From Candidatus Multivorans sp. (GTDB lineage: Bacteria; Acidobacteriota; Thermoanaerobaculia; Multivoradales; Multivoraceae): a stretch of DNA of 64,000 nt. The notes below the pieces were generated by a model, which saw nothing but the letters and a program-made list of their open reading frames with translations, did not search any database and was not told the origin of the DNA. Each line of letters starts with the position of its first letter. The first letter of the stretch is position 1. This document shows positions 6,910-23,944 of this stretch, in pieces. Location: NCBI GenBank assembly GCA_965224025.1, contig OZ245033.1:2688001-2752000 (forward strand). Reading direction: 5' to 3'. A program made the position numbers and the translations under genes.

Positions 6910-6994
6910 GGATGCACCCGGGTGGGTCGGACGCTGCGGCGGGGCAGCTATGATCACGGTGCGCGAATGAACACGCTGGTTGGAGGGCAGGCAC

Positions 6995-8086: not shown

Positions 8087-8099
8087 TCGGTCCGACCTT

Positions 8100-8275
8100 T
8101 CGTTGAGCTTTCGGCTCCAGGCTCGCGCCAGAGCAGGGCCAACAGTGCCGAGGCATCGAGGAGGGCCCGAGTCACCTCAGTCTCGTGCCGCCTCCCGGCG
8201 TCGCTCGGCGATGAAGGCGTCGACTTCGCTTCCCGATGAACCTGTGCCGTACTTCCGAGCAAGCGCCTGGGCTTG
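8100..8275 (-). pseudogene. Remnant of VapBC toxin-antitoxin pair
   Basis: Antitoxin-like C-terminus (...SEVDAFIAERRREAARD*, stop 8177-8179) followed by GTG at 8175 encoding a truncated PIN N-terminus MTRALLDASALLALLWREPGAE. Confidence 0.65.
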
Positions 8276-8349
8276 TCACGCGGAATGGTATGGCGCCCGG
8301 CTGTACCACGGGAGTGAGAGCAGCTGCCAGTCGCTTGGGCCAGCGGTCA

Positions 8350-8398
8350 GCACGGTGGAGGGACGGACGAGGGTGACCATACCGTCGCTCCACCGTGC
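8350..8398 (-). terminator. Stem-loop downstream of precursor peptide B
   Basis: GCACGGTGGAG...CTCCACCGTGC 11-bp inverted repeat plus inner GACGG/CCGTC pairing. Confidence 0.55.
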
Positions 8399-8430
8399 GT
8401 CGCCCGTTGTCGGCGGGTCGGTCGACCCGG

Positions 8431-8727
8431 CTACATACAGATGGTCATGCTCTGGAAGGTCAGGTACATCCCGATGGCGGTCAAGACGGGGGAGCCGACA
8501 ACCTGGCCAGCGGTAGTAAACACCGCTCCGGCAACCGAGTTGGTCCTGCAACTGTGGCGCCGCGCTCCTCCGACCACGCTCGTCAGGTCGGTGGCCGTGA
8601 AGCGGTCGAGGCCATCGTGGCCGATAGTCGATGGTCCGCCCGCTGTCACGGCGTCAGGCGGTATGGCGAAGGAAGCGCCAACGTTCAACACCAGGGCGAT
8701 CAGTGCAATAGCTGAGAATCTCGTCAT
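8431..8727 (-). CDS. Putative secreted precursor peptide B (Sec signal + GG-type pro-segment + Cys-bracketed core)
   Basis: 21-aa signal ending ASFA; GLDRFTATDLTSVVGG; core ARRHSC...GSP...TICM; RBS GAAAGGAACC shared with the paralog at 9918-10211. Confidence 0.8.
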   Translation of the reverse strand: MTRFSAIALIALVLNVGASFAIPPDAVTAGGPSTIGHDGLDRFTATDLTSVVGGARRHSCRTNSVAGAVFTTAGQVVGSPVLTAIGMYLTFQSMTICM

Positions 8728-8797
8728 GTCCAGGGTTCCTTTCGGTTGTAGAGGATTCGGCAGTCAAGCGGTGGAGGCGGCCGGTAGGCATCTCTCG

Positions 8798-8822
8798 GCC
8801 CACCTATGGACCAAGACGGAAT
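8798..8822 (-). promoter_or_regulatory. Conserved upstream motif of peptide B (candidate promoter)
   Basis: Minus strand ATTCCGTCTTGGTCCATAGGTGGGC, near-identical to 10365-10390. Confidence 0.55.
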
Positions 8823-8899
8823 GGGCGCGGCTGGATTCGTCTCGTGTCCTCGCGTTGCTCAAGGGAAGACGGGCTGCCCGGAAGGAGCGCTATGCATGT

Positions 8900-9592
8900 T
8901 CAGCCGCTGAGCATCTGCTCGCGGCGCTCCGCGCGGGCGAAGGTGAGCGCGATGATGGCGGTAATTATGAGCGCGTAGCCGATGCGGTTCCGGACGGCCA
9001 TCGCGAGCAACTGCTCAGCGTCGGCTCCTTCCACCGTGAGCGGGTTCCAGAACGGCGAAATGCGGAACAGGAACGGGAGTAGGGCAGGCACGCTGACGGC
9101 CAGGCCGAATAGCCCGATGGTTGCCAGGGCGCCGGAAGTCTCGCTGCGGAACAAGGCAGCGAAACCCATGGTCAGTGCCAGACAGAAGACGGCTCCTTGC
9201 GCGGCGCCGTAGAGGGTCTGGAAGACTGGAAAGGCGGTGAAGAATGCGAATGTGAGCACCGCCATCAGGCTCAGGCTGGCAAGCAGGATGAGGCCCGCGG
9301 CGGCGAGCTTCCCAAGCCAGACTCGATGGGCGCCGCCCGGTACGGTGTAGGCGATCTCCAGGGTGTGCTCGTCGAGTTCCCCGGCGATGATCCGGCCGCC
9401 CAGAAACACGGCAAGAGCCGACACCGGCATGCCGATCAGGATGTTCTGGGCTGCGGCGGGTTCAAACCCGGTCTGGCGGGCGGTAACCAGCAAGACCGCC
9501 TGCACGGCAAGCCACGGAAGCGGCAGCAGTGGCAGCAGCCAGTACCGCGGGCCCCCGAGCAGCACGGCGGAGAGACGGATGATGGTGATCAC
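8900..9592 (-). CDS. ABC-2-type small permease, copy B
   Basis: About 6 TM segments; GELDEHTLEIAYTVPGGAHRVWLGK coupling-helix motif; start GTG 9592 by alignment with paralog 10472-11161. Confidence 0.85.
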   Translation of the reverse strand: MITIIRLSAVLLGGPRYWLLPLLPLPWLAVQAVLLVTARQTGFEPAAAQNILIGMPVSALAVFLGGRIIAGELDEHTLEIAYTVPGGAHRVWLGKLAAAGLILLASLSLMAVLTFAFFTAFPVFQTLYGAAQGAVFCLALTMGFAALFRSETSGALATIGLFGLAVSVPALLPFLFRISPFWNPLTVEGADAEQLLAMAVRNRIGYALIITAIIALTFARAERREQMLSG

Positions 9593-9837
9593 GCCAGAGT
9601 TCCGAGGGTCGCCAGACCGGGGCGGACATGTTTGGGTTCGACGCCAAGGAGCGATTGCTGCGAAAGAAGAGTTGGGAGTGACGCGAGGGCGACGAATACC
9701 AGCGGTGTCCACGCGACGCAGCCGACCGCTGATCGGCGCGTCCGCGTCGTCAGAGGCCCGGCGGCCGGTCCGACGTGGCATCCCGGTTGGTTCACTGGAC
9801 GTCGCCCTCGCGCCCACGCGGGAGGAAGGATATTGGC

Positions 9838-9908
9838 CCACCGGCGCTCTCGGAAGAGAGAATCCTCATCAATACGATCGCGTGTAGACTCTCGGGTGGC
9901 GCCGGTGG
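9838..9908 (-). terminator. Stem-loop downstream of precursor peptide A
   Basis: CCACCGGCGC (9838-9847) / GCGCCGGTGG (9899-9908) inverted repeat. Confidence 0.4.
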
Positions 9909-9917
9909 AGAGATTGG

Positions 9918-10211
9918 TTACACGCAGATAGCACCGACAAGGCCGAGGCCGGCACCCTGCCCGATTGGATCCCCTGCGATGGTGGCGGCTACGAAGAGCA
10001 GGTAGCCGAGACCCTTGACGGCCAGAGTGCAAGCTCCCGACCGCCACCCTTCACCGGTCACGGCGACCATGTCGGCATCCGTGAGTTGTTCGAGCCCGGG
10101 ATTGTCCGCGCCCGATGTGTCGCCCGCCACGGCCGTGACAGGGGGTTCTGCGAAGGCGCCGCCGACGCTCAGCACAAGCGCTGCCACTGCGAGAGTTAGA
10201 ACTTTCTTCAT
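9918..10211 (-). CDS. Putative secreted precursor peptide A (Sec signal + GG-type pro-segment + Cys-bracketed core)
   Basis: MKKVLTLAVAALVLSVGGAFA signal; GLEQLTDADMVAVTGE; core GWRSGAC...GDP...AICV; RBS GGAAAGGAACCAGGA. Confidence 0.85.
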   Translation of the reverse strand: MKKVLTLAVAALVLSVGGAFAEPPVTAVAGDTSGADNPGLEQLTDADMVAVTGEGWRSGACTLAVKGLGYLLFVAATIAGDPIGQGAGLGLVGAICV

Positions 10212-10364
10212 GATTCCTGGTTCCTTTCCGTTTCATTGGTTTGTGTTGCCGTCGACCCCGTTCGGAGAGGCCGACGACGCTGGTAGGCGGTGAGGTCCGG
10301 CGGAAGCCGAGAAGGCTTCGCAGGTCCGGCGACCCGCAGCGCCTCGTGGCGCCGCAGGGACTGT

Positions 10365-10390
10365 GCCCGCCTATAGACCTAAGACGGAAT
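10365..10390 (-). promoter_or_regulatory. Conserved upstream motif of peptide A (candidate promoter)
   Basis: Minus strand ATTCCGTCTTAGGTCTATAGGCGGGC, near-identical to 8798-8822. Confidence 0.55.
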
Positions 10391-10471
10391 TCGGAGCGGT
10401 TCTTGTCGCGAGGAACCTGAGAGGGGGGCTGGGTGGCGGTGGATGCGTGTCAGTCGATGGCGGAACCCGGC

Positions 10472-11161
10472 TCAGCCACCGAGCATCTTCTCCCGCCGTT
10501 CCGCTCGGGCGAAGGTAAGTGCCACGATGGCGACGATCGCGAGTGCGATGCCAATACGGTTCTGGACGCTCATGGCGAGCATCCGCGCCGCGTCGGCGTC
10601 CTCGATCGCGAGCGGATTCCATAGCGGCGAAATGCGGAACTGGATAGCGCCGAAGCTGGTGATCAAGCCGTTTAGGCCGAGGAGGCCGATCGTGGCCAGG
10701 GTACCGGCGACCTCGCTGCGGAACAGGGTGGCGAACCCCATCGCGGCAACGAGGTAGAAGACGACTCCCTGGCCCGCGCCGTAGAGGCTCTGGAGGACGG
10801 GGAAAGAGGTGAAGAAGGCGAACGAGACGGCCGCCATGAGAATCATGCTGGAGAGCAGGATCAGGATCGCGGCCGCGAGCTTGCTTAGCCAGACGCGATG
10901 GGCGCCTCCCGGCACGGTGTAGGCAATCTCCAGGCTGTGCTCGTCGAGTTCGCCTGTGATCGTCCGCCCACCCAGGAAGATGGCAAGGACTGCTACCGGC
11001 ACGCCGATCAGGGTGTTCTGGGCCGCCGCGGGCTCGAGCGTGGGCCGTCCCGCAAGCAGTAGCGCTGCCTGGATCGTCAGCCAAACGAGGGGCAGAAAAG
11101 GCAGCAACCAGTAGCGCCGCCCGGCCAGCAGCACCGCGGAGAGACGCAGCACGCCGATCAC
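10472..11161 (-). CDS. ABC-2-type small permease, copy A
   Basis: About 6 TM segments; GELDEHSLEIAYTVPGG; start overlaps the stop of the RND-ABC fusion (GTGA). Confidence 0.88.
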   Translation of the reverse strand: MIGVLRLSAVLLAGRRYWLLPFLPLVWLTIQAALLLAGRPTLEPAAAQNTLIGVPVAVLAIFLGGRTITGELDEHSLEIAYTVPGGAHRVWLSKLAAAILILLSSMILMAAVSFAFFTSFPVLQSLYGAGQGVVFYLVAAMGFATLFRSEVAGTLATIGLLGLNGLITSFGAIQFRISPLWNPLAIEDADAARMLAMSVQNRIGIALAIVAIVALTFARAERREKMLGG

Positions 11162-14100
11162 GCCGGGGTTCCACCGCGCGCCGCCCGCGCCAGCCAGAGG
11201 TAGCCGTCCTCGAGCGTGGGTTCGACCGGTTCGGCGCGTTGATCGGGGCGATCCGCGGCCAGCACGCGCAGGCGGCTGCTGCCGTCGGGCTCGGGTTGGC
11301 GATCAGCGAGCACGGACGTCTGGGGCAGCTCCGGCTCTTCATCTCCGGGCGCCGTCCAGGACCAGACGCGGCCTTCTGCCTCCCGGGACAGCGCCGCCGG
11401 CTCGCCGTCGAACACCATGCGGCCGCCGGTGAGCACCAGCACGCGCTCGCAGGCCACGGCCACGTCCTCGACGACGTGGGTGGAGAAGAGGACGATGCGG
11501 TCCTTGGCCAGGCGCGAGAGCAGGTTGCGGAAGCGGACGCGCTCGCGGGGGTCGAGACCGACGGTCGGCTCGTCGACGACGATGATCGGCGGCAGGCGCA
11601 GCAGCGTGCGGGCCACCGCGACCCGCTGCCGCATGCCGCCGGAGTAGCCACCGATCGGTTCGTCCGCGCGCTCGTCGAGTCCGACCTCGCGCAGCAGGGA
11701 CGCAATGCGCTCGGCTCGCTCCGACGCCTCGATCTGGTAGAGCGCGGCGTAGTACTCGAGGTACTGGCGGGCCGTCAGGCGCGCCGGCAGGCCGGCGTCC
11801 TGCGGCAGGTAGCCGACGTAGCGGGCCAGCCGCTTCCGGACGCTGAGCAGCGGCACGCCGCCCAGCGTGATCCGGCCGCGGGTCGAATCGAGAATGCCGG
11901 TCACCTGGCGGAGCAGGGTCGTCTTGCCGGCACCGTTCGGACCCAGCACGCCGACCATGCCTCGCTCGACTTCGAAGCTCACCGCGGCCAGCGCCTTCAC
12001 CGTGTCGATCGGCAGGTCGAGGCCGAAGATCCGGCTTGCAACCGCGCGCCAGAGGCGGATCAACATGCCGCGCCAGCCCCGTGTGCGCCGCTGGCGCGCC
12101 TCTCGCTGCTCCCGGCGCACCGTCTCGAGGCGCGCCGTGCGACGTCCGAGTTGGATGAAGAGAGTGATGGTGGAGAGGATGGTCACGACGACGAACCCGC
12201 CCACCGCGGGTTCGCTCGCGAGAGCCGGACCGGCGAGGCCCGCGAGAAGCGCCCAGGGCAGCAGGGCGGACAGCACGCCCTCGATGCCGCCCGGCTCGAC
12301 TCGTCCGAGCGCGTCGGCCCGGCCACGGGCACGCCGGACCTCGGTCAGCAACCGGGAAGCGATCAGCAGTGCGGCGATCCAGGCGCCCAGTTGGATCAGG
12401 TCGGCACGAAACCTCAGAGCCATGGCGACCGCGCCGGCGAGCAACAGGAGCAACGGCGGGATGCATTCCCGCGCGTCGGCGGGGTGGAACGCTTCACCGC
12501 CGCGGTCGACCACCTGCCTGGCGAAATCGGTCGACGCCCGCAGCGCCCGGCGCACCGGTCCCGCGAGGCCGTATGTCTTGCGCAGGTGGCGGACCACGAG
12601 GCGGGGCGGTCCGGCGCCGGCCTCCGGCTCCGGCGTCGGCGGCTTCGGCACCAGCCACACGGCGAGCCCGAGCAGCGCGCCGGCGATGAGGACCGTCGTC
12701 GTGATCTGCCAAAGCATGGACTCGATCACGCCGAGCACGAACAACGGGGCGGTGGCCGCGATGACCGCGCCGAGCCAGGTCAGCACCATCCAGGGTCCGA
12801 CGCGGCTGAACAGGTCGTCCAGGCGGCGCAGAAAGACGTAGCCGACCGGGATGACGAGCAGCGTGAGCACGGTCGAGGTCAGAAGACCGCCGATCACGAG
12901 TGTCGCGAAGGGCGGCCAGATCTCGTTCTCGCGTCCGGTGGCGATGGCCAGCGGCGCCAGCGCCGCGATTGTTGTCGCGCTCGTCATCAGCACCGGACGC
13001 GCGCGCTCCCGAACCGCGGCCAGGGCGGCGGCGCCGGCGCTCCAGCCGGCGCCGAGTACACGCTGCTGCATCCGGTCGACGAGCAGGACGGCGGGATTCA
13101 CCGCCAACCCCAGCAGGACGAGCGCCCCGAGCAGCGCCATCGGATCGAGCCCGATGCCTGAGAACATGAGCACCCACAGCGAGCCGAGCAGGGCCAGCGG
13201 CAGGGCCAGCAGGACGAGGATCGGCAGGGTCATCGATTCGAACGCCACCGCCAGAACCAGGAACACGAGCATCACGACCGGGCCGAGGACGCGCCGGAAC
13301 CAGCTCGTGTTCTCGTCCGAGCGGTCGAGCTCGATTGTCGTTCCGGGCGGGCGGTGGACGCTGGCGAGGGCCTCGTCCAGGTTGCGGTCGAACTCCAGCC
13401 GGGCCGCTCCGCTGCTTGGTACGTCGGACGAGACGCTGTAGATGACCTCCCGCTCGCGGCGGCCGTTGTGGTGGGTGATCACCGGGGAAGCCGGCGCGCG
13501 GCGGACCTGCGCCAGCGCCGCCACCGGCAGCACGCCGGCGCCGGTGGAGACGCGCAGCCGGGACAGGCCACTGAGCGACACTTCGCGGTCAGGACTCATC
13601 CCGTCTTCGGGCGTCGCGTCGCTGGGCCGAGCTTCCAGGCGTTGGACGACGATCGGAAGCTCGCGGCCGCTCGGAAGCGGGAAGCCGCTGTTGATGCTCG
13701 TGCCCTCGCGGCCGGCGAGATTCAGCATCGGCAGCACATCGTCGAGCAGCACGCCGAAGGTGTCGAAAGCGCGCCGGTTCGGGCTGACGTGGATCTCCTC
13801 GGGGCCGGGTCGCGAGGAGGGGAAGGCGCCGCTGATCCCCTCGATCTCCTTCAGCCGCTCGGCAACCTCGGCAGCGAGACCGGTCAACTGATCGTTGTCG
13901 TTTCCGGACAGGATGACCTTTTGGGGGCCGCCGCCGAGCAACTCCTGGGCGCCGCCCCCGCCGCCGGGGCCGCCGCCGCGACCGCCCGGGCCTTCGCCTT
14001 CGCCGGGTCGCAGAATCTCGGTGCCGGCGCGCCGGTTCGCGGCCCTGCGTACGAGCTGACGGATTCGCCGCGCGGTCAGTTCCTCGGGACGGTCCTCGAG

Positions 14101-15975
14101 GGGCTCGAGGTGCACCGTCAACGAGCCCCCCTCCTCGCGGATCATGCTTTCGACGCGGTCCACACCGTCGACTTCATGAACCGCTTCCAGGGGCTGAAAG
14201 GCGCGCACCGCGGCATCGAGCGAACTGCGGCTCTCGTCGAGGCGCACCGAGAGCTGGACCTGGTCTGCGATTTCTGCGTCCGGCGACACCGTGTTTCCGA
14301 GCACAAAGGGCAGGGCCACGAGCGCGGTGACGACGACGGCGAGAGCCACCGACGTGACCCAGCTCGCGGGCCGCCTCAATGCCGAGGCGAGAACTCCCGC
14401 GAACAGGATGCGGGTCGGGTCGGGCGGCGCCTGTCCGGCGAAGCGTTCGCGTCGCCGGCGCAGTCGGTCCAGCCGGCGGATTGCCGCGGGCGCGGCCAGA
14501 TGGCGGGCCAGCAGCGGTACGAGACCGATCGCCACCAGCAGGGAACCGAACAGCGGCAGCAGGATCGAGAGGGCGGCGATCGCGATCAGGTTGCGGATGA
14601 ACGACGATCCCAGGTCGACGAGCAACGGCGGCACGAACACGACCGCGGTGGTCACCGACGCGGCGATGATCGCGCGGGCGGTGCGACGAATGCCCCCCGC
14701 CGCGGCGTCGTCGGGACTTCGTCCTCGTTCGAGGCGCCGCTGGACGGACTCGAAGACGACGACGCTGTTGTCGACCAGGAGGCCGACCCCGACCGCCAGG
14801 CCGAAGAGGCTGATCAGGTTCAGCGTCTGGCCCGCCAGATAGAGGAAAGCCAGGGCCGAGGCCAGACTGACCGGCACGGCGATGGCGACAACCGCCACTG
14901 CCCGCCACTGTCGGAGGAAAAGGAACAGGACGGCGAGAGCGATCAGGAAACCGGTCAGACCGAGTTTCTTGAGCCGGTCGATCTGGGTCTCGACGAGCTC
15001 CGCGGCGTCGAAGCTGCTCAGCAGGCGAATGCCCAGCGGCTGGAGATCTTCGTTGATCTCTTCGATTCGGCGGCGGAGGTCGCGGCCGAGGCGAACCAGG
15101 TTCGCACCCTCTTCCTGGAGCACCATGACTCCGACCGAGGGGTCGCCGTTGACCCGGAACAGCGTTTGCCGCCGGCCGGGGCCGACCTCGATTTCGGCGA
15201 CGTGGCGCACCAGGGCCGGCCGGTCCGGCACGATCCGGACTTCGCCCATGGACACCGGCCCGATCGGGCGGCCGTCGAGCATCACCGCCATCCTCCCGGC
15301 CTCGTCCTCCAGGCTGCCGAGGTAGCGCAGGCGGCCGGCCGCGGCGCGCACCGCCGCCGTCACCTGCTCCGTGGTGACGCCGAGCGCGGCACAGCGGTTC
15401 GGGTCGACCCAGACGGTCAACTGGCGCGCCGCGCCGCCGCCGACCATCGCCTGGCTGACGCCCGAAACCGCGGCCAGCCGCGGAGTGACGAGTTCGTCGA
15501 CCAAACCGCGCAGGGCGTTCTGATCGGCCGCGCCGGTGACCTGCAGAACCATGGCGAAACTGGAAAGAAAGCCGGTGTCCTGGGACTGGACATCGAGGAA
15601 GGCATTCCGCGGCTGGGTGCGGGCCAGGTCCGCGGCGATCCGGCGCACCTCCAGCTCGCGCACCTTCAGGTCGACGCCACGCTCGAAGAGGATCGTGAAG
15701 CTGCCGCCGGAGCCGATGACCTCGCCCCAGGTTTCGGCGACCCGCGGCAGGGTCCGTACCCGGGCCTCCAGAGGCATCAGGATCTCCCGCTCGATGGTCT
15801 CCGGTTCGCTGCCCGGGCGGAAGAAGTTGACGTAGAGCTGGTCGCCGGTCAGGGCGGGGAAGAGTTCCACCGGCAACCTTTGCCATGCGAACAGCCCCAT
15901 GATCACCAGCCCCAGGAAGAACATCGCCACGGCGACGGGGCGGCGAATGGCGAGGGTGTCGAGACCGGCTCTCAC
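11158..15975 (-). CDS. RND efflux permease fused to a C-terminal ABC ATPase domain
   Basis: AcrB-like RRPVAVAM, LPVELFP, GLLVDNSVVV, RARPVLMTS; C-terminal GPNGAGKTT, GYLPQD, YSGGMRQR, IIVVDEPT, STH; single 1605-aa ORF. Confidence 0.9.
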   Translation of the reverse strand: MRAGLDTLAIRRPVAVAMFFLGLVIMGLFAWQRLPVELFPALTGDQLYVNFFRPGSEPETIEREILMPLEARVRTLPRVAETWGEVIGSGGSFTILFERGVDLKVRELEVRRIAADLARTQPRNAFLDVQSQDTGFLSSFAMVLQVTGAADQNALRGLVDELVTPRLAAVSGVSQAMVGGGAARQLTVWVDPNRCAALGVTTEQVTAAVRAAAGRLRYLGSLEDEAGRMAVMLDGRPIGPVSMGEVRIVPDRPALVRHVAEIEVGPGRRQTLFRVNGDPSVGVMVLQEEGANLVRLGRDLRRRIEEINEDLQPLGIRLLSSFDAAELVETQIDRLKKLGLTGFLIALAVLFLFLRQWRAVAVVAIAVPVSLASALAFLYLAGQTLNLISLFGLAVGVGLLVDNSVVVFESVQRRLERGRSPDDAAAGGIRRTARAIIAASVTTAVVFVPPLLVDLGSSFIRNLIAIAALSILLPLFGSLLVAIGLVPLLARHLAAPAAIRRLDRLRRRRERFAGQAPPDPTRILFAGVLASALRRPASWVTSVALAVVVTALVALPFVLGNTVSPDAEIADQVQLSVRLDESRSSLDAAVRAFQPLEAVHEVDGVDRVESMIREEGGSLTVHLEPLEDRPEELTARRIRQLVRRAANRRAGTEILRPGEGEGPGGRGGGPGGGGGAQELLGGGPQKVILSGNDNDQLTGLAAEVAERLKEIEGISGAFPSSRPGPEEIHVSPNRRAFDTFGVLLDDVLPMLNLAGREGTSINSGFPLPSGRELPIVVQRLEARPSDATPEDGMSPDREVSLSGLSRLRVSTGAGVLPVAALAQVRRAPASPVITHHNGRREREVIYSVSSDVPSSGAARLEFDRNLDEALASVHRPPGTTIELDRSDENTSWFRRVLGPVVMLVFLVLAVAFESMTLPILVLLALPLALLGSLWVLMFSGIGLDPMALLGALVLLGLAVNPAVLLVDRMQQRVLGAGWSAGAAALAAVRERARPVLMTSATTIAALAPLAIATGRENEIWPPFATLVIGGLLTSTVLTLLVIPVGYVFLRRLDDLFSRVGPWMVLTWLGAVIAATAPLFVLGVIESMLWQITTTVLIAGALLGLAVWLVPKPPTPEPEAGAGPPRLVVRHLRKTYGLAGPVRRALRASTDFARQVVDRGGEAFHPADARECIPPLLLLLAGAVAMALRFRADLIQLGAWIAALLIASRLLTEVRRARGRADALGRVEPGGIEGVLSALLPWALLAGLAGPALASEPAVGGFVVVTILSTITLFIQLGRRTARLETVRREQREARQRRTRGWRGMLIRLWRAVASRIFGLDLPIDTVKALAAVSFEVERGMVGVLGPNGAGKTTLLRQVTGILDSTRGRITLGGVPLLSVRKRLARYVGYLPQDAGLPARLTARQYLEYYAALYQIEASERAERIASLLREVGLDERADEPIGGYSGGMRQRVAVARTLLRLPPIIVVDEPTVGLDPRERVRFRNLLSRLAKDRIVLFSTHVVEDVAVACERVLVLTGGRMVFDGEPAALSREAEGRVWSWTAPGDEEPELPQTSVLADRQPEPDGSSRLRVLAADRPDQRAEPVEPTLEDGYLWLARAARGGTPA

Positions 15976-15988
15976 GTCGCCTTCCGGT

Positions 15989-18900
15989 TCAGGCCCCGGC
16001 CGGGGCGCGGCGGCGCCGGGTCAGTCGCATCGAGTCGAGGATCAGGTAGAGGCAGGGCAGGACGAGGAGCGAGCCGACGGTGGAAGTCAGGATGCCTCCG
16101 ATGATCGTGTACGCCATCGGGCTCCGCAGTTCCGCGGCCTCGCCGGCGCCGAGAGCGAGCGGCGCCAGCACCAGGACGGTGGTCAGAGTCGTCATCAGGA
16201 TCGGCCGCAGCCGGATCGCCGCGGCCCGGGCCAGCGCGGCGTGCCGCTCCATGCCGGCGGCGAGCAGGCGCCGGGCGGTGGCGATCAGCAGGACCGCGTC
16301 GTTCACCGCCACGCCCGCGAGCACGATGAGGCCGAGCAGCGCCATGACCCCGACCGGCCGCCCGAGGAAGCCGAGGGTGCAGGCGACGCCGACCAGAGCC
16401 AGGGGGATCGAGAACAGCACCGTGAGCGGTTGGAGCAGGGACTCGAACGTTCCGGCCAGGACCATCAGCACGAGAACGAGTGCCAGCAGGCCCGCCCAGC
16501 GCAGTTCGCCGACGGCGCGCTCGCGTTCCTCCTCCTCGCCGGCCAGACGGACCCCCAGACCGGAGGGCAGGTCGGTTGCCGCGATCGCCTCGCCGGCTGC
16601 CGCGACAGCGCGCGGGTAGTCGCTGTCCTCGGCGACCCGGGCGGTCACCTGGGCGACGCGGCGCTGGTCGCGGCGGAAGACCTCGCGGGCGCCCTCGGCG
16701 GGGACGAAGCGGGCGACCTGGCCGAGGGCGAGATCCGCGCCGGCGTTGCTTGTGAAGCGCAGTTCGGCGAGTTCTTCGGGCCGCGGCTGGGGCAGAGAGA
16801 GGACGACATGGCGCTCCTCGTCTCCGGTCGAGAGCAGGGTGACCCTGCGGCCGTCGAGTGCGGACTGGAGCACTCGGGCGATCGTCTCCAGGCCGACGCC
16901 CAGACCGTCGGCCATCGCGCGGTCGAGTTCGATCCGCAGTTCCGGCGGCCCGCCCTCGAACGAGGAGCGGACGTTCCAGAGTTCGGATTGTGCGGCGAGG
17001 GCGTCGCGCAGTCTGGTGGCCGCCAGGCGCAGGTCGGGTAGCGACTGGCCGGCGATCTCGACCACGATCGGCGGCCCCGCGGAGCCAAGCGCGCGCGACA
17101 GGGCGGAGGCCCCGACCTCCCACTCGATCTCGGTACCCGGCAGGTCTTCGAAGTTGGGCTGCAGGGCGGCCACGATCTGGCCGCCGGTCGGCCCTTCGGC
17201 GGACATCCGGACGAGCAGGCGGGCCGTGTTCTCTTCGGTCAGCTCCGTGGTCACCAGCCGATCGTCCTCGGGCAGGCGGCCGACCTCGGCCTGGATCGCC
17301 TCCAGGTGCTCGCCGGCAGCCTGCCGGACCGCCTCTTCCAGCGTCGCAACGGCGCCGGCGGTGGCCTCGACGCGCTGGCCGGGCGGGCCCACCATGCGCA
17401 CCGAGAACTGCCGCGGGTCGGCGGGCGGCAGCAGCTCGCTGCCGAGTCCGAGCAGAACGTGGACGCCGCCGGCGGCGGCGAGCACCGCCGTCGCGACGAC
17501 CAGCCAGCGCAGCCGGAGCAGGGAGAGAACCAGGCGCTCGACGGCGCCGAAGGCCCAGCCCAGCGGGCGCGCCTCGTCTTCGTCGGGGTCCGCGGTTGTG
17601 CCGGTGGTTGCCGCCTCCGATGCCTCCTCAGTGGCCTCGGGCGCGGCGGTTTCCGGCTTCGCGCGCGGCAGGAGCCAGCGCGACAGGGCCGGAATCAGCA
17701 TGATCGCGACCGCCAGGGAGGCGCCGAGAGAGGCGGTGACGGTGAAGGCGATGCCCTCGATCAGACGCGCCGCCAGCCCCTGGACGAAGAGGACGGGTAG
17801 GAAGACCACGCAGGTGGTGAGCGTCGAGGCGGCGATTGCGCCCGCGACCTCGCCCGTGCCCCTGGCGGCCGTGTCGGCTGCCGAAGCGCCGGGGCGGTGG
17901 CGGCGGTGGATGCTCTCGACAACGACGATCGCGTTGTCCACCAGCATGCCGGCGCCGAGCGCCAGCCCGGCCAGGGTGATGATGTTCAGGGAGTGCTCCC
18001 ACAGCCGCATCGCGAACAGGGCGACGAACAGGGACACCGGCACTGCCGAGGCCACGACCACGGTCGGACCGAGGGAGCGCAGGAACAGCGCCAGGACGAC
18101 GACGGCGAGGGCGATGCCGATCAGGGCCGCGTTCAACAGATCGTCCATCGCGTCCTCGACCAGGGCGGCGTCGTCGTTGACCATCGAGACGCTGACCCGG
18201 GGCAGGTCGCGCTCCAGGTCGTCGAGCGCCGCGCGCACGGTGCGCGAGACCTCCACGGTGTTCGCGCCGGCCTCCTTGAACACCTGGAGACCGACGCCCT
18301 CCCGGCCGTTCACCCGCACCAGGTGGTCGATCTCGGCGTGGGCGAGTTCGACCTCGGCGACATCGGAGACCCGGATCGGCTGACGGACCTGCTGGCCTCC
18401 CCCCACCTGCTGAGTGCGGTAGCGCACGACGACCCGCTCGACATCGCGGGAGTTCCGGAACCGGGAGATGCCGCGAACGAGATAGACTTGACCGCCGTCC
18501 TCCAGGGTGCCGGCGTCGATGTCGACGTTCTCGGCTACGAGTCGCTGCTCGAGTTGATTCAACGTGACGCCGAACGCCTGCAGGCGGTAGCGGTCGACGC
18601 GTACACGGACCTCCAGGTCGCGTCCGCCGAGGACCCGGACCTCGGCGACGTCGGCAAGCTGCTCCATGGCCGGCGCCACTTGGCGGCGCGCCAGGCGGCG
18701 GAGCTCGGCGAGATCGGGTCCTTCGGGCTCGGCGGCCAGCCCCAGGGTGATCACCGGCGACTGCCGCGGATCGAGTTGACGGACCAGGACCTCGTCGACT
18801 TCGGGGTCGGCGGCGACCGGATTGACCGCCTTCTGCACCTCGATCAGCGCCAAGTCCATGTCGGCGTCCCAGTCGAAGCGGACGGTGGCGATCAGGCGGC

Positions 18901-19183
18901 CGGTGCGGGCCACCTGGTGAACCTCGCGGAGGCCGCGCACCGTGAACAGGCGCTGCTCGACCTGCTCGCCGTAGAGCCGCTCCATCTCGGTCGGCGGCCG
19001 GTCGCCGGAACGCACGGCGACGACGATGGTCGGCGAACGCAGGTCGGGCAGGAGGTCGATCGGCAGTTCGCGCCACGACATCCAGCCCACCAGGGCGAAG
19101 GCCAGGGCGGTGACGGTGACCGCTACGGGCCGGCGCGCAGCCAGGCGGGCGGGACCGAAGGTCTCACCGGATGTTCGAGTCAT
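15989..19183 (-). CDS. RND (AcrB/AcrD/AcrF family) efflux permease
   Basis: LPIDLLP, GMLVDNAIVVVE, GVAVNDAVLL, RLRPILMTTLTT; 1064 aa. Confidence 0.93.
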   Translation of the reverse strand: MTRTSGETFGPARLAARRPVAVTVTALAFALVGWMSWRELPIDLLPDLRSPTIVVAVRSGDRPPTEMERLYGEQVEQRLFTVRGLREVHQVARTGRLIATVRFDWDADMDLALIEVQKAVNPVAADPEVDEVLVRQLDPRQSPVITLGLAAEPEGPDLAELRRLARRQVAPAMEQLADVAEVRVLGGRDLEVRVRVDRYRLQAFGVTLNQLEQRLVAENVDIDAGTLEDGGQVYLVRGISRFRNSRDVERVVVRYRTQQVGGGQQVRQPIRVSDVAEVELAHAEIDHLVRVNGREGVGLQVFKEAGANTVEVSRTVRAALDDLERDLPRVSVSMVNDDAALVEDAMDDLLNAALIGIALAVVVLALFLRSLGPTVVVASAVPVSLFVALFAMRLWEHSLNIITLAGLALGAGMLVDNAIVVVESIHRRHRPGASAADTAARGTGEVAGAIAASTLTTCVVFLPVLFVQGLAARLIEGIAFTVTASLGASLAVAIMLIPALSRWLLPRAKPETAAPEATEEASEAATTGTTADPDEDEARPLGWAFGAVERLVLSLLRLRWLVVATAVLAAAGGVHVLLGLGSELLPPADPRQFSVRMVGPPGQRVEATAGAVATLEEAVRQAAGEHLEAIQAEVGRLPEDDRLVTTELTEENTARLLVRMSAEGPTGGQIVAALQPNFEDLPGTEIEWEVGASALSRALGSAGPPIVVEIAGQSLPDLRLAATRLRDALAAQSELWNVRSSFEGGPPELRIELDRAMADGLGVGLETIARVLQSALDGRRVTLLSTGDEERHVVLSLPQPRPEELAELRFTSNAGADLALGQVARFVPAEGAREVFRRDQRRVAQVTARVAEDSDYPRAVAAAGEAIAATDLPSGLGVRLAGEEEERERAVGELRWAGLLALVLVLMVLAGTFESLLQPLTVLFSIPLALVGVACTLGFLGRPVGVMALLGLIVLAGVAVNDAVLLIATARRLLAAGMERHAALARAAAIRLRPILMTTLTTVLVLAPLALGAGEAAELRSPMAYTIIGGILTSTVGSLLVLPCLYLILDSMRLTRRRRAPAGA

Positions 19184-19222: not shown

Positions 19223-20329
19223 CTATTGGGAGACCCGGACGCGTGTACCGTCGGTCAGGGTCTCGAGACCGCGTACGACGACCCGCTCGCCGAGCTCGAG
19301 CCCCTGGCGAATCTCGGTGATCTCGTCGTCGCCGAGGCCGAGAACGACTTCGCGCCGCACCGCGCGCTGGCCGTCGAGGACGAAGACGACGCGCCGGCCG
19401 CCGCGCTCGGTAACCGCCTCGCGCGGAATGACGGGGACGTCGTTTCGCTGCTCGACGACCAGGGTCACTTCGACGAACATGCCCGGCCGCAGCAGGCCGC
19501 CGGGATTGCGCACGGCGACCTCGGCGCGGAAGGTGTGGGCGACCGGGTCGACCTCGGGGGACAGGCGAACGACCGCGCCTGCGAACGTCTGGCCCTCCCA
19601 GGCGAAGTGCCTGAGCCGGCCCTGCTGCCTGGGGTGGACCCGCGCCAGTTCGGGGCCCACGAGGTCGATGTCGGCGACCAGGGAGTCGACCGGAGCGATC
19701 CGGGCCACCTGGAAGCCCTGGGAGACGAGCTGGCCGTCGGCGATCGGCATGCCGTTCGGGTCGCGCGCGAGTTCCATCAGCACACCGCCGATCGGAGTCA
19801 GCATCTTCGCGCGGTCCTCGGTCAGGAGGCTCTGCTCCCAGGTCGCCTTCGCGTCCTCGAGCGCGATCTCGGCGCGGCGCAGTTCCTCGGCACTGATCAG
19901 TTCCTGCTCGAACAGCTTGGCGCGGGCGTCTCGTTCGGCCTCGGCGCCCAGGTAGGCCTGGTGGGTTGCTTCGACCCGGGCCGCAAGGCGTGCGTCCTCG
20001 CCGGTGACCTCCGCGATCATCTGGTCGGGGACGACGCGGTCGCCCTCGGCCAGCCGGTCGCCGGAACCGTTGCGGCCGATCAGCAGTCTCCCGGGCGTTT
20101 CGACCTGCAGGACGATGCTCTCGGCCGCTCGCAGAGTGCCGGTGGCGACGATCAGATCCTCGACGCTGCCGGTTTCGACCTCGGCCGCGGTGACCGGCAC
20201 CAGGAAGTCGACGGGGTCCGTGCTGCCGCCGCCTTCGCAGGCGACGATCGCGGCGCAGGCCGCAATCGCAATTGCGAGGCCCGCGCGCCGGAAGTTGGCG
20301 GTCGGGCGGGATGGCTGCCGCGCGCTCAT
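19223..20329 (-). CDS. RND periplasmic adaptor (MFP), probable lipoprotein
   Basis: Start MSARQP (ATGA overlap with upstream gene); lipobox IVAC; LLRPGMFVEV, IPREAV, GLELGERVVVRG. Confidence 0.9.
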   Translation of the reverse strand: MSARQPSRPTANFRRAGLAIAIAACAAIVACEGGGSTDPVDFLVPVTAAEVETGSVEDLIVATGTLRAAESIVLQVETPGRLLIGRNGSGDRLAEGDRVVPDQMIAEVTGEDARLAARVEATHQAYLGAEAERDARAKLFEQELISAEELRRAEIALEDAKATWEQSLLTEDRAKMLTPIGGVLMELARDPNGMPIADGQLVSQGFQVARIAPVDSLVADIDLVGPELARVHPRQQGRLRHFAWEGQTFAGAVVRLSPEVDPVAHTFRAEVAVRNPGGLLRPGMFVEVTLVVEQRNDVPVIPREAVTERGGRRVVFVLDGQRAVRREVVLGLGDDEITEIRQGLELGERVVVRGLETLTDGTRVRVSQ

Positions 20330-23300
20330 GGCCCCGCGCCCCCGGTCTCGGCACGGCCGGCGGCGGCGCCGTTGTCGAGCCGCACGAAGCGCACGGCGTC
20401 CGCGGCGACCGCTCTGCCGGAGGTCTCGTCGCTCAGGACCAGTTCGGTCGGGCCGCCGGCCAGATCGAAGTCTCCGAGCACCGCCCATCCGGTTCCCGCG
20501 GCCGCGGCGTCGAAGTCGATCGGCCGGGAGACGCCGCCGTTCTGCAGTTCGAGGTCGTAGGTACCGAGATTCAGGCCCAGGTTCACCGAGATCCGCACGC
20601 CGTCGCCGTCGTTCCCTCTTCGCTGAGCGTTTCCTCCATCGTTGCCGACCCGCACTTCCCGACGCACGCCCGCGGCGCCGGCTGGCAGCGGCGAGAGCGA
20701 CGGTACGTGCAGTTCGACTCGCCAGCGGCCGTCTGCCGGCAACTCCGTCCGGTAGATCGCGCGGCTGGTCCCTTCGCCCGCTGGCGCCAGGGCGGTCGTG
20801 CGGCGGTAGCGCCCCCAACTCGTGGGCTGTTCGTAGCGCGACCATTCTGTCGGCGTTCCGCCGAAGCTCTGGTAAACGAGCAGGCCCTGATCCGTCTGGT
20901 TCGACGGTGCGAAGAAGCCGGCGAGACCGCCCTGCAGCCGGAAGCCGCCGGTATCCGCTTCATCCGTCTCGATCGAGAAGCCGGGGTCCAGGTCGTCGAC
21001 GACGACCATGTCGGTCGCTGATCGCAGGAAGGCGGGCAGCCAGTCGGCCGGTCGCGTGCCGCGTAGCGGTTCGGCCTCGACGATCGATTCGTCGTCGACA
21101 TCAGGCAGATCGATCGGGAACTCCCGGCGGTTCAGCGACAGATACGGGGAAGCGAGCATCCTGCCCGGCGCCCTGGACGTGACCAGGCCGAATTCGACGG
21201 AGGTGTTTCCCGGGATCAGAGTTGGCTCGCTGGTCTCCCAGCGCACCCCGCTCGGTGCGCGAACGGCGTAGCGGAGCCGGAAGAGGCCGGGCGCTTTCTC
21301 GCCGTTGTGGACGAAGAGACGGGTCTGGTACTGCGGCAGGCCCTGGTCGTCGTCCGCCAGCCGCACGAGTTCGGCTGCGGAGACGACGAAGCCGGGCAGG
21401 TCGGTCTGGTGGAGGAAGTCGCCGACCAGGCCGGCGAGGTCCACGCCGGCTTCCTGAGCGGCCCGTTCGAGGTCGGCGGCGGTGAAGGTCGAGCCCCGGT
21501 GGTCGCGCATGAGGTTGGCGATCATCGCGGCGGTCCGTTCCCGGCCGGCGCCGTCCAGGATTGCGGTGGCCAGGGCCGAGGTCTTCAGGTAGAGCGCGTT
21601 GAGCGCCTTCTTCGGCTCCTCTTCGACCTCCATTTTCGTCAGCGAGGCGCCGAGCACGGCGTCCCAGACTTCGGGGCGGTCCGTGAGGCTCCTCACGATC
21701 GAACTGGAGATGGGTGCGCCGCCTCCGCCGAGCTGGCCCAACACGGCGCCCTGTACCACGCTGCCGATCGTCCAGCCGAACTCGCGGTCGAACAGGTGGG
21801 CCGAGAAGTACGATTCGCCGCCGCTCACCAGCCGGTTCACCAGGTTGTTGCACAGTTCGTCGAGCGCCAGCGCCTCCGGACCGCGGGCGGCGGTCTGATA
21901 CAGGAACAGGTTGCGGATGCCGCCCACCTCCACGTTGCCGCCCGAGAAGTCGTTGCGGAAGAACTGCTGCAGTCTGAAGGCCTTTGCCCGCGCCAGACCG
22001 CCCTCCTGCTCCTCGAACTGCTCAGGGTTGCGGAACGGGAACTCGAAGCGAGCGGTCGGCAGGCTGCTCTCGCTGATCAGCACCATGCCCGGCGGTGCGC
22101 GCTCGGTGTCCATGCGCCAACCGCCGCCGTAGGAACGCAGCGTCCAGGGCACTTCGACCAGGGTGAGTTGGCGGTAGGGGTAGGGCAGACCGAGCTCGCG
22201 GGCAGTGGCGAAGCGCTCGGCGGCGACCGCTTCGATCTCTTCCCTGGCATCGGCGAAGAACTCCACGTTTCTGAGATGGCGGGGGTGGACGAGCAGTTCG
22301 ATCTCGACGCCCTCGATCTCCGTCGTCCGGCGATCGAACCGTCCGGCGATCAGGGCCGCTTCAGGCACGACCCCCACCGGTGCGAACCGTTGCCGGTCGC
22401 CTGCCGCCTCGCCTCTGCCTGGCCCGGCGACCGTCCAGCCCGAGGGGGCGCCGACCTCCAGGTCGAGTTCGAAGAAGTCTCTGGGACGCCTTCGCGGATC
22501 GGCGAGGCCAACTGAAGCGCCGGGGCGTGGCAGCCAGGCCAGCGCGGCGGGCAGCGCGACGTAGCGACGCTCCGCAAAGCCGTTCAGGGCGCCGAGAATG
22601 ATGATCTGCGCGTCCTGGAACTTGATCCGGTTGAAATCGATCGCGGAATCCAGGTGGGCGAAGCGAAGGTCAGGCCGTCCGTGGGCGCGCAGGCGAAGGT
22701 CGACGGCTTGGCCCGCGGCCTGCGAGCGCCCGAGGTCGACTTCGAGCAGGCCGGCGCCGTGGTTGAAGGCGAGCGGCGCGCCGGCAGAGTCCTCGACGGC
22801 ATCGACGTCAAGGCCGGGGTTCAGGCTGAAGAGGGCCCGCGAACCTCCGGCGGCGAGGAACCGGACGTTGACGTCGAGGGTCAGACGACCCCGCGGTTCG
22901 ATGTCGACGGAGCCGTGGATCCGCTCCAGGTCAAGGACCGGTTCCTCCTGACGTTCCGCGTGGGCGATCCGCCAGTCGTCGATCTCGTCGACCTGGTTGG
23001 TGGCGGTCACCGCGGCGGCCGCGATCGTGCCGATGGCCGCGACCAGAAGGCCGGCGCCGGCGGTGGCCCACAGGCGTCGCCGGGCGTCGTCGAGCCGGGG
23101 ATGGACGGCGACGGCGACCGCAAGCAGACCAACGGCCAGCGCCGCGACCGTGGCCCGGTTCATCAGGTTCAGGGCGGTCCATATCTGGGGCGCGACTTCG
23201 GACGGATTGCTGCCGAAGCCGCCCTGGAGCGACAGGATGGGCAGGATGTAGGTCGGTACGCGGAAGGAGAGAATCCATGGACCGATGGCCAGCCCGAGGC

Positions 23301-23874
23301 CAAGAAGCGCGGCCACCAGGCGGTTGCGGCTCAGGAGCGACGCCACCTGGACGAAGGCGATGGTCATGGCCAGCGCCGGCAGCGCCTCGGTCAGCAGGTA
23401 GGCCCAGACGGAACTCCAGATCGCCGGTTCGCCCACGTACCAACCGAGCGCCACTCCGAGATGGCCGAAGCCCTGGATGAGCATCATGCCGATGAAGGCG
23501 ACGCCCCAGATCAGGATCAGGGCGCCCAGGAACCTGCCCAGGACGAGTTCCGCGTTCGAATAGGGCCGGCTGTCCAGGACCTCGATCACGCGGTCGCGCC
23601 GGTCCCGTGCGCGCACGTCGAAGGCCAGAAAGACGACGCCGATCGCCAGGACCATCGTCTGGATCGAACCCATCTGGGCGAGCAGGAACTTCGGGCTGAA
23701 CGAGCCGACCGTCGCCGACCAGGACGAGAAGAGGCCGTGGATAGCCCAGTAGTAGCCGTACGACAGCAGGCCGATGAGGATTGCAAGGCCCGAGAACAAC
23801 CAGAAGCGGAACAGCCGGCGGATGGTGCGCATCTCGGCGCGGGCCAGGGACCAGACGGCGGCGAGTGAGATCAC
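20326..23874 (-). CDS. ABC-2 permease fused to an M1-aminopeptidase-like domain lacking HEXXH and a C-terminal golvesin-like beta-sandwich
   Basis: N-terminal TMs with RDRRDRVIEVLDSRPYSNAELVLGR; LPYPYRQLTLVEVP; YLKTSAL...DFLHQTDLP; tail GWAVLGDFDL...AADAVRFVR; start GTG 23874 after AGGAGG. Confidence 0.8.
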   Translation of the reverse strand: MISLAAVWSLARAEMRTIRRLFRFWLFSGLAILIGLLSYGYYWAIHGLFSSWSATVGSFSPKFLLAQMGSIQTMVLAIGVVFLAFDVRARDRRDRVIEVLDSRPYSNAELVLGRFLGALILIWGVAFIGMMLIQGFGHLGVALGWYVGEPAIWSSVWAYLLTEALPALAMTIAFVQVASLLSRNRLVAALLGLGLAIGPWILSFRVPTYILPILSLQGGFGSNPSEVAPQIWTALNLMNRATVAALAVGLLAVAVAVHPRLDDARRRLWATAGAGLLVAAIGTIAAAAVTATNQVDEIDDWRIAHAERQEEPVLDLERIHGSVDIEPRGRLTLDVNVRFLAAGGSRALFSLNPGLDVDAVEDSAGAPLAFNHGAGLLEVDLGRSQAAGQAVDLRLRAHGRPDLRFAHLDSAIDFNRIKFQDAQIIILGALNGFAERRYVALPAALAWLPRPGASVGLADPRRRPRDFFELDLEVGAPSGWTVAGPGRGEAAGDRQRFAPVGVVPEAALIAGRFDRRTTEIEGVEIELLVHPRHLRNVEFFADAREEIEAVAAERFATARELGLPYPYRQLTLVEVPWTLRSYGGGWRMDTERAPPGMVLISESSLPTARFEFPFRNPEQFEEQEGGLARAKAFRLQQFFRNDFSGGNVEVGGIRNLFLYQTAARGPEALALDELCNNLVNRLVSGGESYFSAHLFDREFGWTIGSVVQGAVLGQLGGGGAPISSSIVRSLTDRPEVWDAVLGASLTKMEVEEEPKKALNALYLKTSALATAILDGAGRERTAAMIANLMRDHRGSTFTAADLERAAQEAGVDLAGLVGDFLHQTDLPGFVVSAAELVRLADDDQGLPQYQTRLFVHNGEKAPGLFRLRYAVRAPSGVRWETSEPTLIPGNTSVEFGLVTSRAPGRMLASPYLSLNRREFPIDLPDVDDESIVEAEPLRGTRPADWLPAFLRSATDMVVVDDLDPGFSIETDEADTGGFRLQGGLAGFFAPSNQTDQGLLVYQSFGGTPTEWSRYEQPTSWGRYRRTTALAPAGEGTSRAIYRTELPADGRWRVELHVPSLSPLPAGAAGVRREVRVGNDGGNAQRRGNDGDGVRISVNLGLNLGTYDLELQNGGVSRPIDFDAAAAGTGWAVLGDFDLAGGPTELVLSDETSGRAVAADAVRFVRLDNGAAAGRAETGGAGP

Positions 23875-23888
23875 TGTCGGGCCCTCCT

Positions 23889-23917
23889 GGGAACGCGGGC
23901 GTCTCGCCCGCATCCGG
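23889..23917 (+). repeat. REP-like palindrome inside the transporter operon
   Basis: GGGAACGCGGGCGTCTCGCCCGCATCCGG. Confidence 0.8.
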
Positions 23918-23944
23918 CTCGGGGCCAGACCACGGCGAGCGGCA

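Follow-up and report, generated by a model that had tools for sequence, protein, structure and literature searches.

Candidate two-cysteine peptides behind Sec-like signals and double-glycine-type leaders, and their mosaic permease cassettes, in a pump operon of Candidatus Multivorans

Results

Precursor peptides

We analysed a stretch of 64,000 nucleotides of Candidatus Multivorans sp. (phylum Acidobacteriota; contig OZ245033.1, positions 2,688,001 to 2,752,000), hereinafter the window, and in particular two short genes, pepA and pepB, at the end of a minus-strand pump operon. The order of this operon is ABC ATPase, large ABC-2 permease, HlyD-type membrane-fusion protein (MFP), RND, RND::ABC, perm1, pepA, perm2, pepB, where perm1 and perm2 are ABC-2 permease genes. 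Judging from their sequences, pepA and pepB almost certainly encode three-part precursors, with a signal peptide, a double-glycine-type leader and a core with two cysteines.

The pepA gene (9918..10211, minus strand) encodes 97 amino acids and a stop, and pepB (8431..8727, minus strand) encodes 98 amino acids and a stop; both were taken from the list of open reading frames (ORFs). pepB is the last gene of the array and has no permease gene 3' of it. Residues 1-21 (10149-10211 in pepA, 8665-8727 in pepB) have, by sequence pattern, the n-, h- and c-regions of a signal peptide, ending in AFA or SFA and followed by x-P-P. Residues 22-54 (10050-10148 and 8566-8664, respectively) form an acidic segment of 33 amino acids with a double-glycine-type motif at its end. 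The cores, residues 55-97 in pepA (9921-10049) and 55-98 in pepB (8434-8565), are hydrophobic, are 43 and 44 amino acids long, and have a Cys at core position 7 or 6 and a penultimate Cys. The two precursors are homologous (33% identity over 91 columns, E 4e-12). An earlier note, made from the letters of this DNA, had divided both ORFs in the same way; they were found, on the minus strand, at the limits that it gave, and the division is conserved across homologues.

Double-glycine leaders have hydrophobic residues at positions -4, -7, -12 and -15 and Gly at position -2. The same register is observed here relative to a cut after residue 54, with hydrophobic residues at all four positions and an invariant Gly at -2. 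Residue -1 is G in pepB, E in pepA, and G, A, E, R or K in other A-type members of the family. It is G or A in 9 of the 10 peptides from C39 peptidase loci that entered alignment A2, described below. Nothing above threshold was found in Pfam or NCBIfam for pepA, pepB and 21 family members. Sub-threshold matches of single members were to families with GG leaders: BlpC (E 0.0022), bacteriocin_sig (0.074), Bacteriocin_IIc (0.088) and bactofencin_A (0.11).

Conservation and distribution

A search among 5.77 billion proteins yielded 25 relatives of pepA, all of 95-101 amino acids. Aligned, they show a hypervariable core behind a strongly conserved signal and pro-segment. No sequence deviates at G53 or C96, and at least 90% of them retain C61. 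Two broader comparisons were made. Profile A1 was built only from peptides of the RND locus, that is, of the pump operon. Alignment A2 contains 21 sequences from four subfamilies, with peptides of the C39 loci added, and in it M1, G53, C61 and C96 are all invariant. The Cys pair and the motif Gly, whose conservation in homologues the earlier note had made decisive for its reading, are therefore conserved.

In a profile search of 1.84 billion cluster representatives, only 41 matched at E<=0.001. In hmmalign columns, G53 is retained in 39/41 of these and C61 also in 39/41. By direct counting of cysteines, 37/41 have an early Cys and another Cys 1-5 residues from the C-terminus, with a spacing of 33-44 residues. 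The four exceptions are a 276-aa protein with five repeats, two peptides with CxxC and one peptide without Cys. The first of these, P0054, has no signal peptide and contains five tandem leader-like units (...VELSDADLEAIAGAG...), each followed by a short variable stretch; from its sequence, it may be a precursor of several cores, cleaved at each of the repeated GG-type sites. The central G-[DS]-P-[IV] turn that the earlier note had described in both cores does not hold as a feature of the family: it occurs in some core types but not in others, and of the 37 representatives with the Cys pair, 15 have a Pro at most 3 residues from the Cys-Cys midpoint.

Profile A1 matched 29 of the 36 other genomes of the genus and, in 21 further genera of the order, none of the 24 genomes searched. 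Profile A2 matched four of five genus genomes and none of 295 other Acidobacteriota genomes; the sensitivity of this search is limited, because only 16 candidates were scored per genome. As far as found by sequence similarity, the peptide family is restricted to one genus, Candidatus Multivorans. Look-alikes in the ESM Atlas had a best score of 0.86, and all of them were clusters of 'hypothetical protein'. No account of a Sec-plus-double-glycine precursor family was found in the literature, subscription journals and supplements being outside the search, and no publication was found under the name Candidatus Multivorans.

Structures were predicted by AlphaFold2 using the family alignments. Both models show a disordered acidic segment, a long helix running through the motif into the core, a break of two residues, and a second helix. 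The helices span residues 45-79 and 82-92 in pepA (core pLDDT, the local confidence score of the model, 72-84; mean 62) and residues 40-77 and 80-97 in pepB (core pLDDT 68-75; mean 61). The break is at G80-D81 in pepA, with C61 19 residues before it and C96 15 residues after it, and at G78-S79 in pepB, with one Cys 18 residues before and the other 18 residues after. Because the break is near the Cys-Cys midpoint, the two cysteines would face each other in an antiparallel hairpin, their proximity being deduced from the position of the break and not from coordinates. The helical hairpin core of the earlier note is thus supported in both peptides as far as the succession of helix, break and helix is concerned, and the Cys-Cys distance is still presumed. 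A Foldseek search of the PDB with the pepA model, itself of moderate confidence, gave no matches at E<=0.001, and hence no pilin or fibre.

Mosaic cassettes

The peptide array is a mosaic in which each variable core is coupled to the permease gene downstream of it, and whole modules are present in some genomes and absent from others. The paired ABC-2 permeases, the mosaic cassettes and the pump operon were not part of the earlier note.

Eight loci were compared, the one in the window and seven from related genomes (L013-L019). The pump and the flanks are 78-97% identical at the protein level, and each locus has 2-4 permeases and 2-3 intact peptides. The peptide in the first slot has at least five unrelated core types behind a near-identical leader. 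Between genomes with different pepA core types, the synonymous divergence (dS) is 0.08-0.37 in the leader vs. 0.6 to saturated in the core. Because dS is low in the leader and high in the core, the cores are old alleles joined to the leader by recombination rather than fast-evolving copies.

The borders of the exchanged segment can be seen in the DNA. The window is colinear with L015, L017, L018 and L019 over the pump, perm1, the intergenic region and the leader, and the colinearity ends at q1973-1975 in all four cases. This homology break is 21-23 nt into the core, just past the conserved Cys-Thr. In L013, which has the same core type as the window, the colinearity continues through perm2 and breaks at its last codon.

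In a maximum-likelihood tree of 22 permeases, the eight first-slot permeases form a single clade, whatever peptide follows. The clade of the downstream permease tracks the type of the upstream core: type 1 is followed by clade alpha, to which perm2 belongs, in 3/3 cases, and type 3 by clade beta in 2/2 cases. The opposite pairing, of a peptide with the permease upstream of it, was considered and rejected, since the first-slot permeases are one clade and the B-type peptides follow permeases of three clades.

Genomes of the genus that lack the peptides have exactly one permease match (5/5 searched). Two of them were inspected directly, and in both the pump and perm1 are followed by the flanking gene with nothing between. 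Genomes G003, G010 and G022 have exactly perm1-peptide-permease. This pattern of presence and absence indicates that the unit gained or lost is the variable core together with the following permease.

Truncated, start-less leader remnants lie between two permease genes in L014 (8892-9050), L015 (11310-11582), L017 (11438-11596) and L018 (11162-11560). With these remnants before them, the extra permeases resemble orphan immunity genes. Permease genes are damaged as well: L015 has a 5'-truncated copy (11799-12308), and in G033 a permease is split over two frames (L046 1993-2681). Orthologues of pepB, 55-77% identical, occupy the terminal slot of L014, L015, L017, L018 and L019.

Standalone C39 peptidases

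No Peptidase_C39 match was found among the operon proteins scanned. The same genome has only two C39 matches in total, both of them short standalone genes. In peptidase-ABC exporters the C39 domain is N-terminal and cytoplasmic. Both standalone proteins start with a basic stretch followed by a hydrophobic segment, and this N-terminal pattern suggests that they are located outside the cytoplasm, either membrane-tethered or secreted. One of them (Peptidase_C39 E 2.4e-31) has the LahT150 double-glycine protease as its nearest solved structure (E 8.9e-14), and the catalytic Cys and His motifs align.

There is a genomic link between the leader family and these peptidases, as each standalone C39 gene is flanked by small ORFs with a signal, a GG motif and two Cys. 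The first such locus, identified from ORFs and family scans, is at 1.80 Mb (L022, G000:C1:1794000-1813000, positions 9061-16324). Its order is a membrane-anchored thioredoxin-like protein with the motif CGNC, the standalone C39, three small signal-bearing peptides, two large membrane proteins, an ABC ATPase and a Yip1-domain protein. Two of the three peptides are of the GG type with two to four Cys, and one is Pro/Cys-rich; the two large membrane proteins have no Pfam match. The other locus (L021 / L023, G000:C1, about 3.369-3.371 Mb) contains a C39 paralogue, 53% identical to the first and with a lipoprotein-like N-terminus, and a 100-aa peptide with the GG motif and two Cys. An ORF fragment beside this paralogue (L021 2-229) resembles an IS-family transposase by eye only, no family search having been made.

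Profile A1 matches ORFs directly adjoining a standalone C39 gene in five genomes, G000, G020, G031, G032 and G036 (E 2.8e-10 to 3.7e-4). The short C39 was found in 36/36 genomes of the genus, and in other genera only long peptidase-ABC forms were matched. Decoding of TGA as selenocysteine in the C39 matches of three genomes was considered and dropped; in the one frame translated for L027 and L033, the stop seen is that of the upstream thioredoxin-like gene.

From its sequence, the standalone C39 is a plausible candidate for the enzyme that would remove the pro-segment in the periplasm, that is, for the second cleavage step. We consider such processing of the pepA and pepB precursors somewhat probable. 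The two-step periplasmic maturation suggested in the earlier note has thus gained candidate exported C39 peptidases beside peptides of the same architecture, and the cleavage itself is presumed.

Pump operon and intergenic region

All genes of the pump are on the minus strand. The first recognisable gene encodes the ABC ATPase (23945..24952; ABC_tran E 3e-29). It is followed by the large ABC-2 permease of up to 1234 aa, with a Golvesin_C-like C-terminal domain (20326..24030; ABC2_membrane_2 E 2.5e-7, Golvesin_C E 7.3e-9), and the MFP (19223..20845; HlyD_D23 E 3e-15, residues 267-458). The true start of the latter is probably downstream of 20845, because the ORF overlaps the next gene. Then come the second RND permease of 1064 aa (15989..19183; ACR_tran E 3.5e-198) and the RND::ABC fusion of 1605 aa (11158..15975; ACR_tran E 1.2e-141, residues 8-1049; ABC_tran E 6.7e-27, residues 1331-1471).

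In the fusion, an AcrB-type RND protein is joined to a C-terminal ABC ATPase domain via about 250 residues with extra hydrophobic segments. We know of no characterised RND::ABC fusion. Such proteins are widespread, with 1176 matches at E<=1e-10 among 8000 scored candidates, many of them about 1600 aa long and with both domains; their names are generic and tell only the source (Holophagales, Thermoanaerobaculia and one metagenome-assembled genome of Pseudomonadales). As the fusion is common beyond the genus, the pump predates the peptide modules, which were added at the level of the genus. The RND::ABC protein presumably supplies the ATPase for perm1 and for the extra permeases.

The perm1 gene, the first-slot ABC-2 permease of 229 aa (10472..11161; ORF list, ABC2_membrane_2), has a GTG start that overlaps the stop of the RND::ABC gene (GTGA). 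Its paralogue perm2, 68% identical to perm1 and of 230 aa (8900..9592; ABC2_membrane_2 E 5.7e-5, below the curated cut-off), is the next gene after pepA. The GTG start of perm2 at 9592 was set by homology, the longest ORF extending to 9841. The two ABC2_membrane_2 scores are 23.0 and 18.9 bits vs. a cut-off of 27.2, and the permeases have six hydrophobic segments. Two patches of the permeases are variable, at residues of about 31-40 (entropy 1.27 bits) and 161-177 (1.4-1.7 bits), vs. 0.1-0.9 bits in the other ten-residue blocks; among the first-slot permeases both patches are conserved. By hydropathy and the positive-inside rule, the patches are predicted to be the periplasmic ends of transmembrane segments 1 and 5. 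A complex prediction for two perm2 chains and the pepA core (residues 55-97) scored 0.00 vs. a mark of 0.32, was run without controls, and speaks neither for nor against binding.

The intergenic region upstream of pepA (10212..10471, minus strand, 260 nt) stands out by its conservation and its predicted stem-loops. Its mean column identity is 85% in alignment A4 of 9 sequences, including the most distant loci, a level of conservation equal to that of coding sequence. Within it are an invariant near-palindromic block, TAGGTC.ATAG, and, 8-12 nt before the ATG of pepA, a Shine-Dalgarno-like AAGGAA. Several stem-loops are predicted, with 61 pairs, 6 of which have a compensatory change. No Rfam match was found in 8000-11500. 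A scan of 8200-11300 gave no sigma-70-like promoter sites and two terminator-like sites, both inside coding sequence, vs. 1.6 expected by chance. The region could be a regulatory leader or an operator.

The G+C content is 0.650-0.657 over 8001-11000 vs. 0.67-0.74 in the other 1-kb windows of 1-24 kb. This lower value in the peptide and permease modules is consistent with an accessory, exchanged segment. Two conserved genes are convergent with the array, at 6980-8086 (plus strand, 368 aa, signal-like N-terminus) and 6357-6848 (plus strand, 163 aa). Both are syntenic in all related loci examined and have no Pfam match.

Discussion

The explanation that we favour, and to which we give about an even chance, is that pepA and pepB encode Sec-exported, periplasmically C39-processed, disulfide-stapled bacteriocin-like peptides, with cognate permease modules for immunity or export, on an operon of the MFP-RND-RND::ABC pump. 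The precursor would be exported by Sec and cut by signal peptidase after AFA or SFA. A standalone C39 peptidase would then cut past G53-x54 in the periplasm, producing the N-termini GWRSGAC... (pepA) and ARRHSC... (pepB). A disulfide between the two cysteines at the open end of the predicted helix-turn-helix would staple the hairpin. This hydrophobic, slightly cationic hairpin would act on membranes as a bacteriocin-like antagonist, and its exit from the cell may be aided by the upstream MFP-RND-RND::ABC machinery. The ABC-2 permease encoded directly after each variable core would be a cognate immunity and/or export subunit; it is a paralogue of perm1, and may borrow the ATPase domain fused to the RND protein.

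An antagonist is favoured because the constant leader with swappable cores, the membrane protein gene downstream, the permeases retained behind decayed peptides, the lower G+C content and the restriction to one genus match bacteriocin/immunity loci and polymorphic-toxin loci. We infer the cleavage, the disulfide and the membrane or antimicrobial activity of both peptides. Toxicity and immunity are graded lower than the architecture and the C39 processing.

Several observations weigh against this explanation. C39 sites prefer G, A or S at position -1, so that E in pepA, and E, R or K in some A-type members, are unusual. The C39 genes are 0.67 and 0.89 Mb away from the pepA/pepB locus. They also occur in genomes of the genus without RND-locus peptides, and therefore have other substrates. 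The peptides resemble no named bacteriocin and no Pfam or NCBIfam family significantly, the hits being below the cut-offs and each confined to 1/21 members. The AlphaFold2 models are of moderate confidence (mean pLDDT 62 and 61), and the Cys-Cys distance is deduced from them indirectly. The Pfam matches of the permeases are under the gathering score, and permease topology and signal peptides were called by simple hydropathy rules. The scanned ORFs of the operon include no recognisable TolC-like outer-membrane factor. The co-inheritance of core and permease could be simple linkage in one recombination block, the genomes being closely related and the cases few. Finally, the pepB-type core is not hypervariable: dS is similar in its leader and core, with omega, the ratio of non-synonymous to synonymous rates, at 0.5-1.5. 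Since in addition no permease follows it, a scheme of toxin and then immunity does not cover pepB.

The last of these observations fits signalling. Double-glycine leaders also serve pheromones, and pepA and pepB might be exported and non-toxic, acting in signalling, in kin recognition (as pherotypes) or as surface-active peptides, with the downstream permease as a dedicated exporter subunit rather than an immunity protein. We regard this as rather unlikely. The best of the sub-threshold families, BlpC, suits a non-toxic signal, polymorphic cores behind a conserved leader are also typical of pherotype systems, and the pepB-type cores are conserved and have no partner permease. However, no sensor kinase or receptor gene was seen within the module, and very hydrophobic cores of about 43 aa are large for a pheromone. 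The permeases kept behind degenerate peptide remnants suit immunity and not an exporter that has lost its cargo.

The peptides might also stay uncleaved at the motif and serve as small inner-membrane subunits anchored by the hairpin, each with its neighbouring ABC-2 permease, and modulate the ABC/RND pump. The RND-locus peptides are always inside the pump operon, interleaved with the permease paralogues; the length of the C-terminal hairpin allows two short membrane helices, and the locus has no C39 gene. However, the pump and perm1 are found without any peptide in at least five genomes of the genus and the RND::ABC fusion is widespread outside it, and therefore the pump does not need the peptides. 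Moreover, homologues of the leader adjoin standalone C39 genes away from any pump, and unrelated cores swapped behind a fixed leader are unexpected for a structural subunit. On balance, such a role is unlikely.

It is very improbable that the peptides build filaments, the alternative given in the earlier note, or amyloid, with a FapD-like peptidase processing them in the periplasm. A periplasmic C39 is indeed required for secretion of Fap fibres in Pseudomonas (PMC5557850). However, the cores are short, helical in prediction and hypervariable, a poor fit to a filament for a hydrophobic hairpin of 43 aa; no amyloid-type repeats were found, general scans of the locus revealed no FapF-like barrel, and no pilin or fibre structure matched at E<=0.001. 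The earlier note had also stated that double-glycine-like motifs occur behind Sec signals in Fap and Fil proteins. The Fap paper does not say so, and describes the Fap proteins as lacking canonical C39 motifs (PMC5557850).

pepA and pepB are real genes, and it is extremely improbable that they are spurious or decaying ORFs without function: related genomes do contain clearly truncated copies, and omega is near 1 in cores of the same type, but intact ORFs of 95-101 aa are present in 29/36 other genomes of the genus, omega in the leader is 0.13-0.8, the start, the Shine-Dalgarno-like site and the upstream region are conserved, and the Gly and Cys positions are invariant across subfamilies.

Bacteriocin-like peptides with cognate permeases, the explanation favoured here, can be compared with several known systems. 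Class II bacteriocins and microcins (e.g. microcin V; Pfam Bacteriocin_IIc, TIGR01847) share with the family the Gly at -2, the hydrophobic residues at -4, -7, -12 and -15, a conserved leader and a variable core. They also share a small, unmodified, Gly/Ala-rich hydrophobic core, a near-C-terminal disulfide in some members of the class, and an MFP-type partner nearby. Judging from its sequences, the family may work like this class, but it departs from it in several of the features by which membership was assessed. A full Sec-like signal of 21 aa precedes the leader in pepA, pepB and homologues. There is no peptidase-ABC transporter (C39, transmembrane and nucleotide-binding domains) in the pepA/pepB cluster, the candidate C39s being standalone and elsewhere. 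Residue -1 is E, R or K in some members; the putative immunity gene encodes an ABC-2 permease paralogue and not a small immunity protein; and no curated bacteriocin model is matched significantly.

In LanFEG, As-48EFGH and McbEF, ABC-2 permeases are encoded beside the gene for a membrane-active peptide, and are proposed to expel the peptide from the membrane of the producer. The module described here differs in carrying a permease only, the shared ATPase domain being fused to the RND protein. Its permeases, in turn, are paralogous to the permease of the pump itself, and their variation is concentrated in two short patches.

A precedent for processing outside the cytoplasm is FapD of Pseudomonas, a C39 peptidase with a Sec signal that acts on Sec-exported substrates (PMC5557850). 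The standalone C39s resemble it in having an N-terminal export-type segment, from which their location is predicted, and aligned catalytic Cys and His. However, the Fap substrates are proteins of an amyloid system without a canonical motif, and the FapD target is unresolved, whereas here small two-Cys peptides with a GG motif adjoin the C39 genes. No Fap genes (FapF barrel, amyloid repeat subunits) turned up in general scans of the neighbours, no search aimed at Fap having been made.

Enterotoxin STII offers a parallel for the proposed two-step route of Sec export and disulfide formation followed by a tripartite pump: it is exported by Sec, loses its signal, acquires a periplasmic disulfide and is then secreted by MacAB-TolC (PMC8277102). 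However, STII lacks a second pro-segment of the GG type and is not organised in polymorphic cassettes, and the machinery here is an MFP with RND, RND::ABC and ABC-2 permeases rather than MacB.

The cassettes themselves are similar to polymorphic toxins. These have a genus-specific constant N-terminal part after the signal, recombining C-termini, a protective gene directly downstream, and orphan cassettes (PMC3482391). Here, similarly, there are a constant leader, a swapped core, a downstream partner gene and remnants, toxicity and immunity being presumed. On the other hand, the toxins of those systems are large and multidomain, their toxin domains are enzymes and their immunity proteins are soluble, whereas the peptides described here would be hairpins of 43 aa with a membrane permease.

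Conclusions

The broadest interpretation, that the family is a class of bacteriocins of diderms with two-step maturation outside the cytoplasm and interchangeable ABC-2 'plug-in' subunits on a shared RND-fused ATPase, so that weapon and antidote are swapped as one cassette, is possible but doubtful.

According to the textbooks, double-glycine leaders stand in for Sec signals and mark peptides to be processed in the cytoplasm by ABC exporters with a peptidase domain. If the proposed maturation is true, the leader family behind Sec signals, with exported standalone C39s beside its peptides, would mean that this chemistry also works in the periplasm, and peptidases of the FapD type would gain a clear class of substrates. 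Bacteriocin finders that expect an N-terminal leader or a nearby peptidase-ABC transporter would miss this family. The hairpins can be synthesised and tested directly, because they are about 43 aa long, presumably unmodified save for one disulfide, and naturally diverse. The competitive biology of the phylum Acidobacteriota is almost unknown, and the structure of the cassettes suggests that membrane-active peptides could be diversified in a compact manner along with the transporter subunits that match them.

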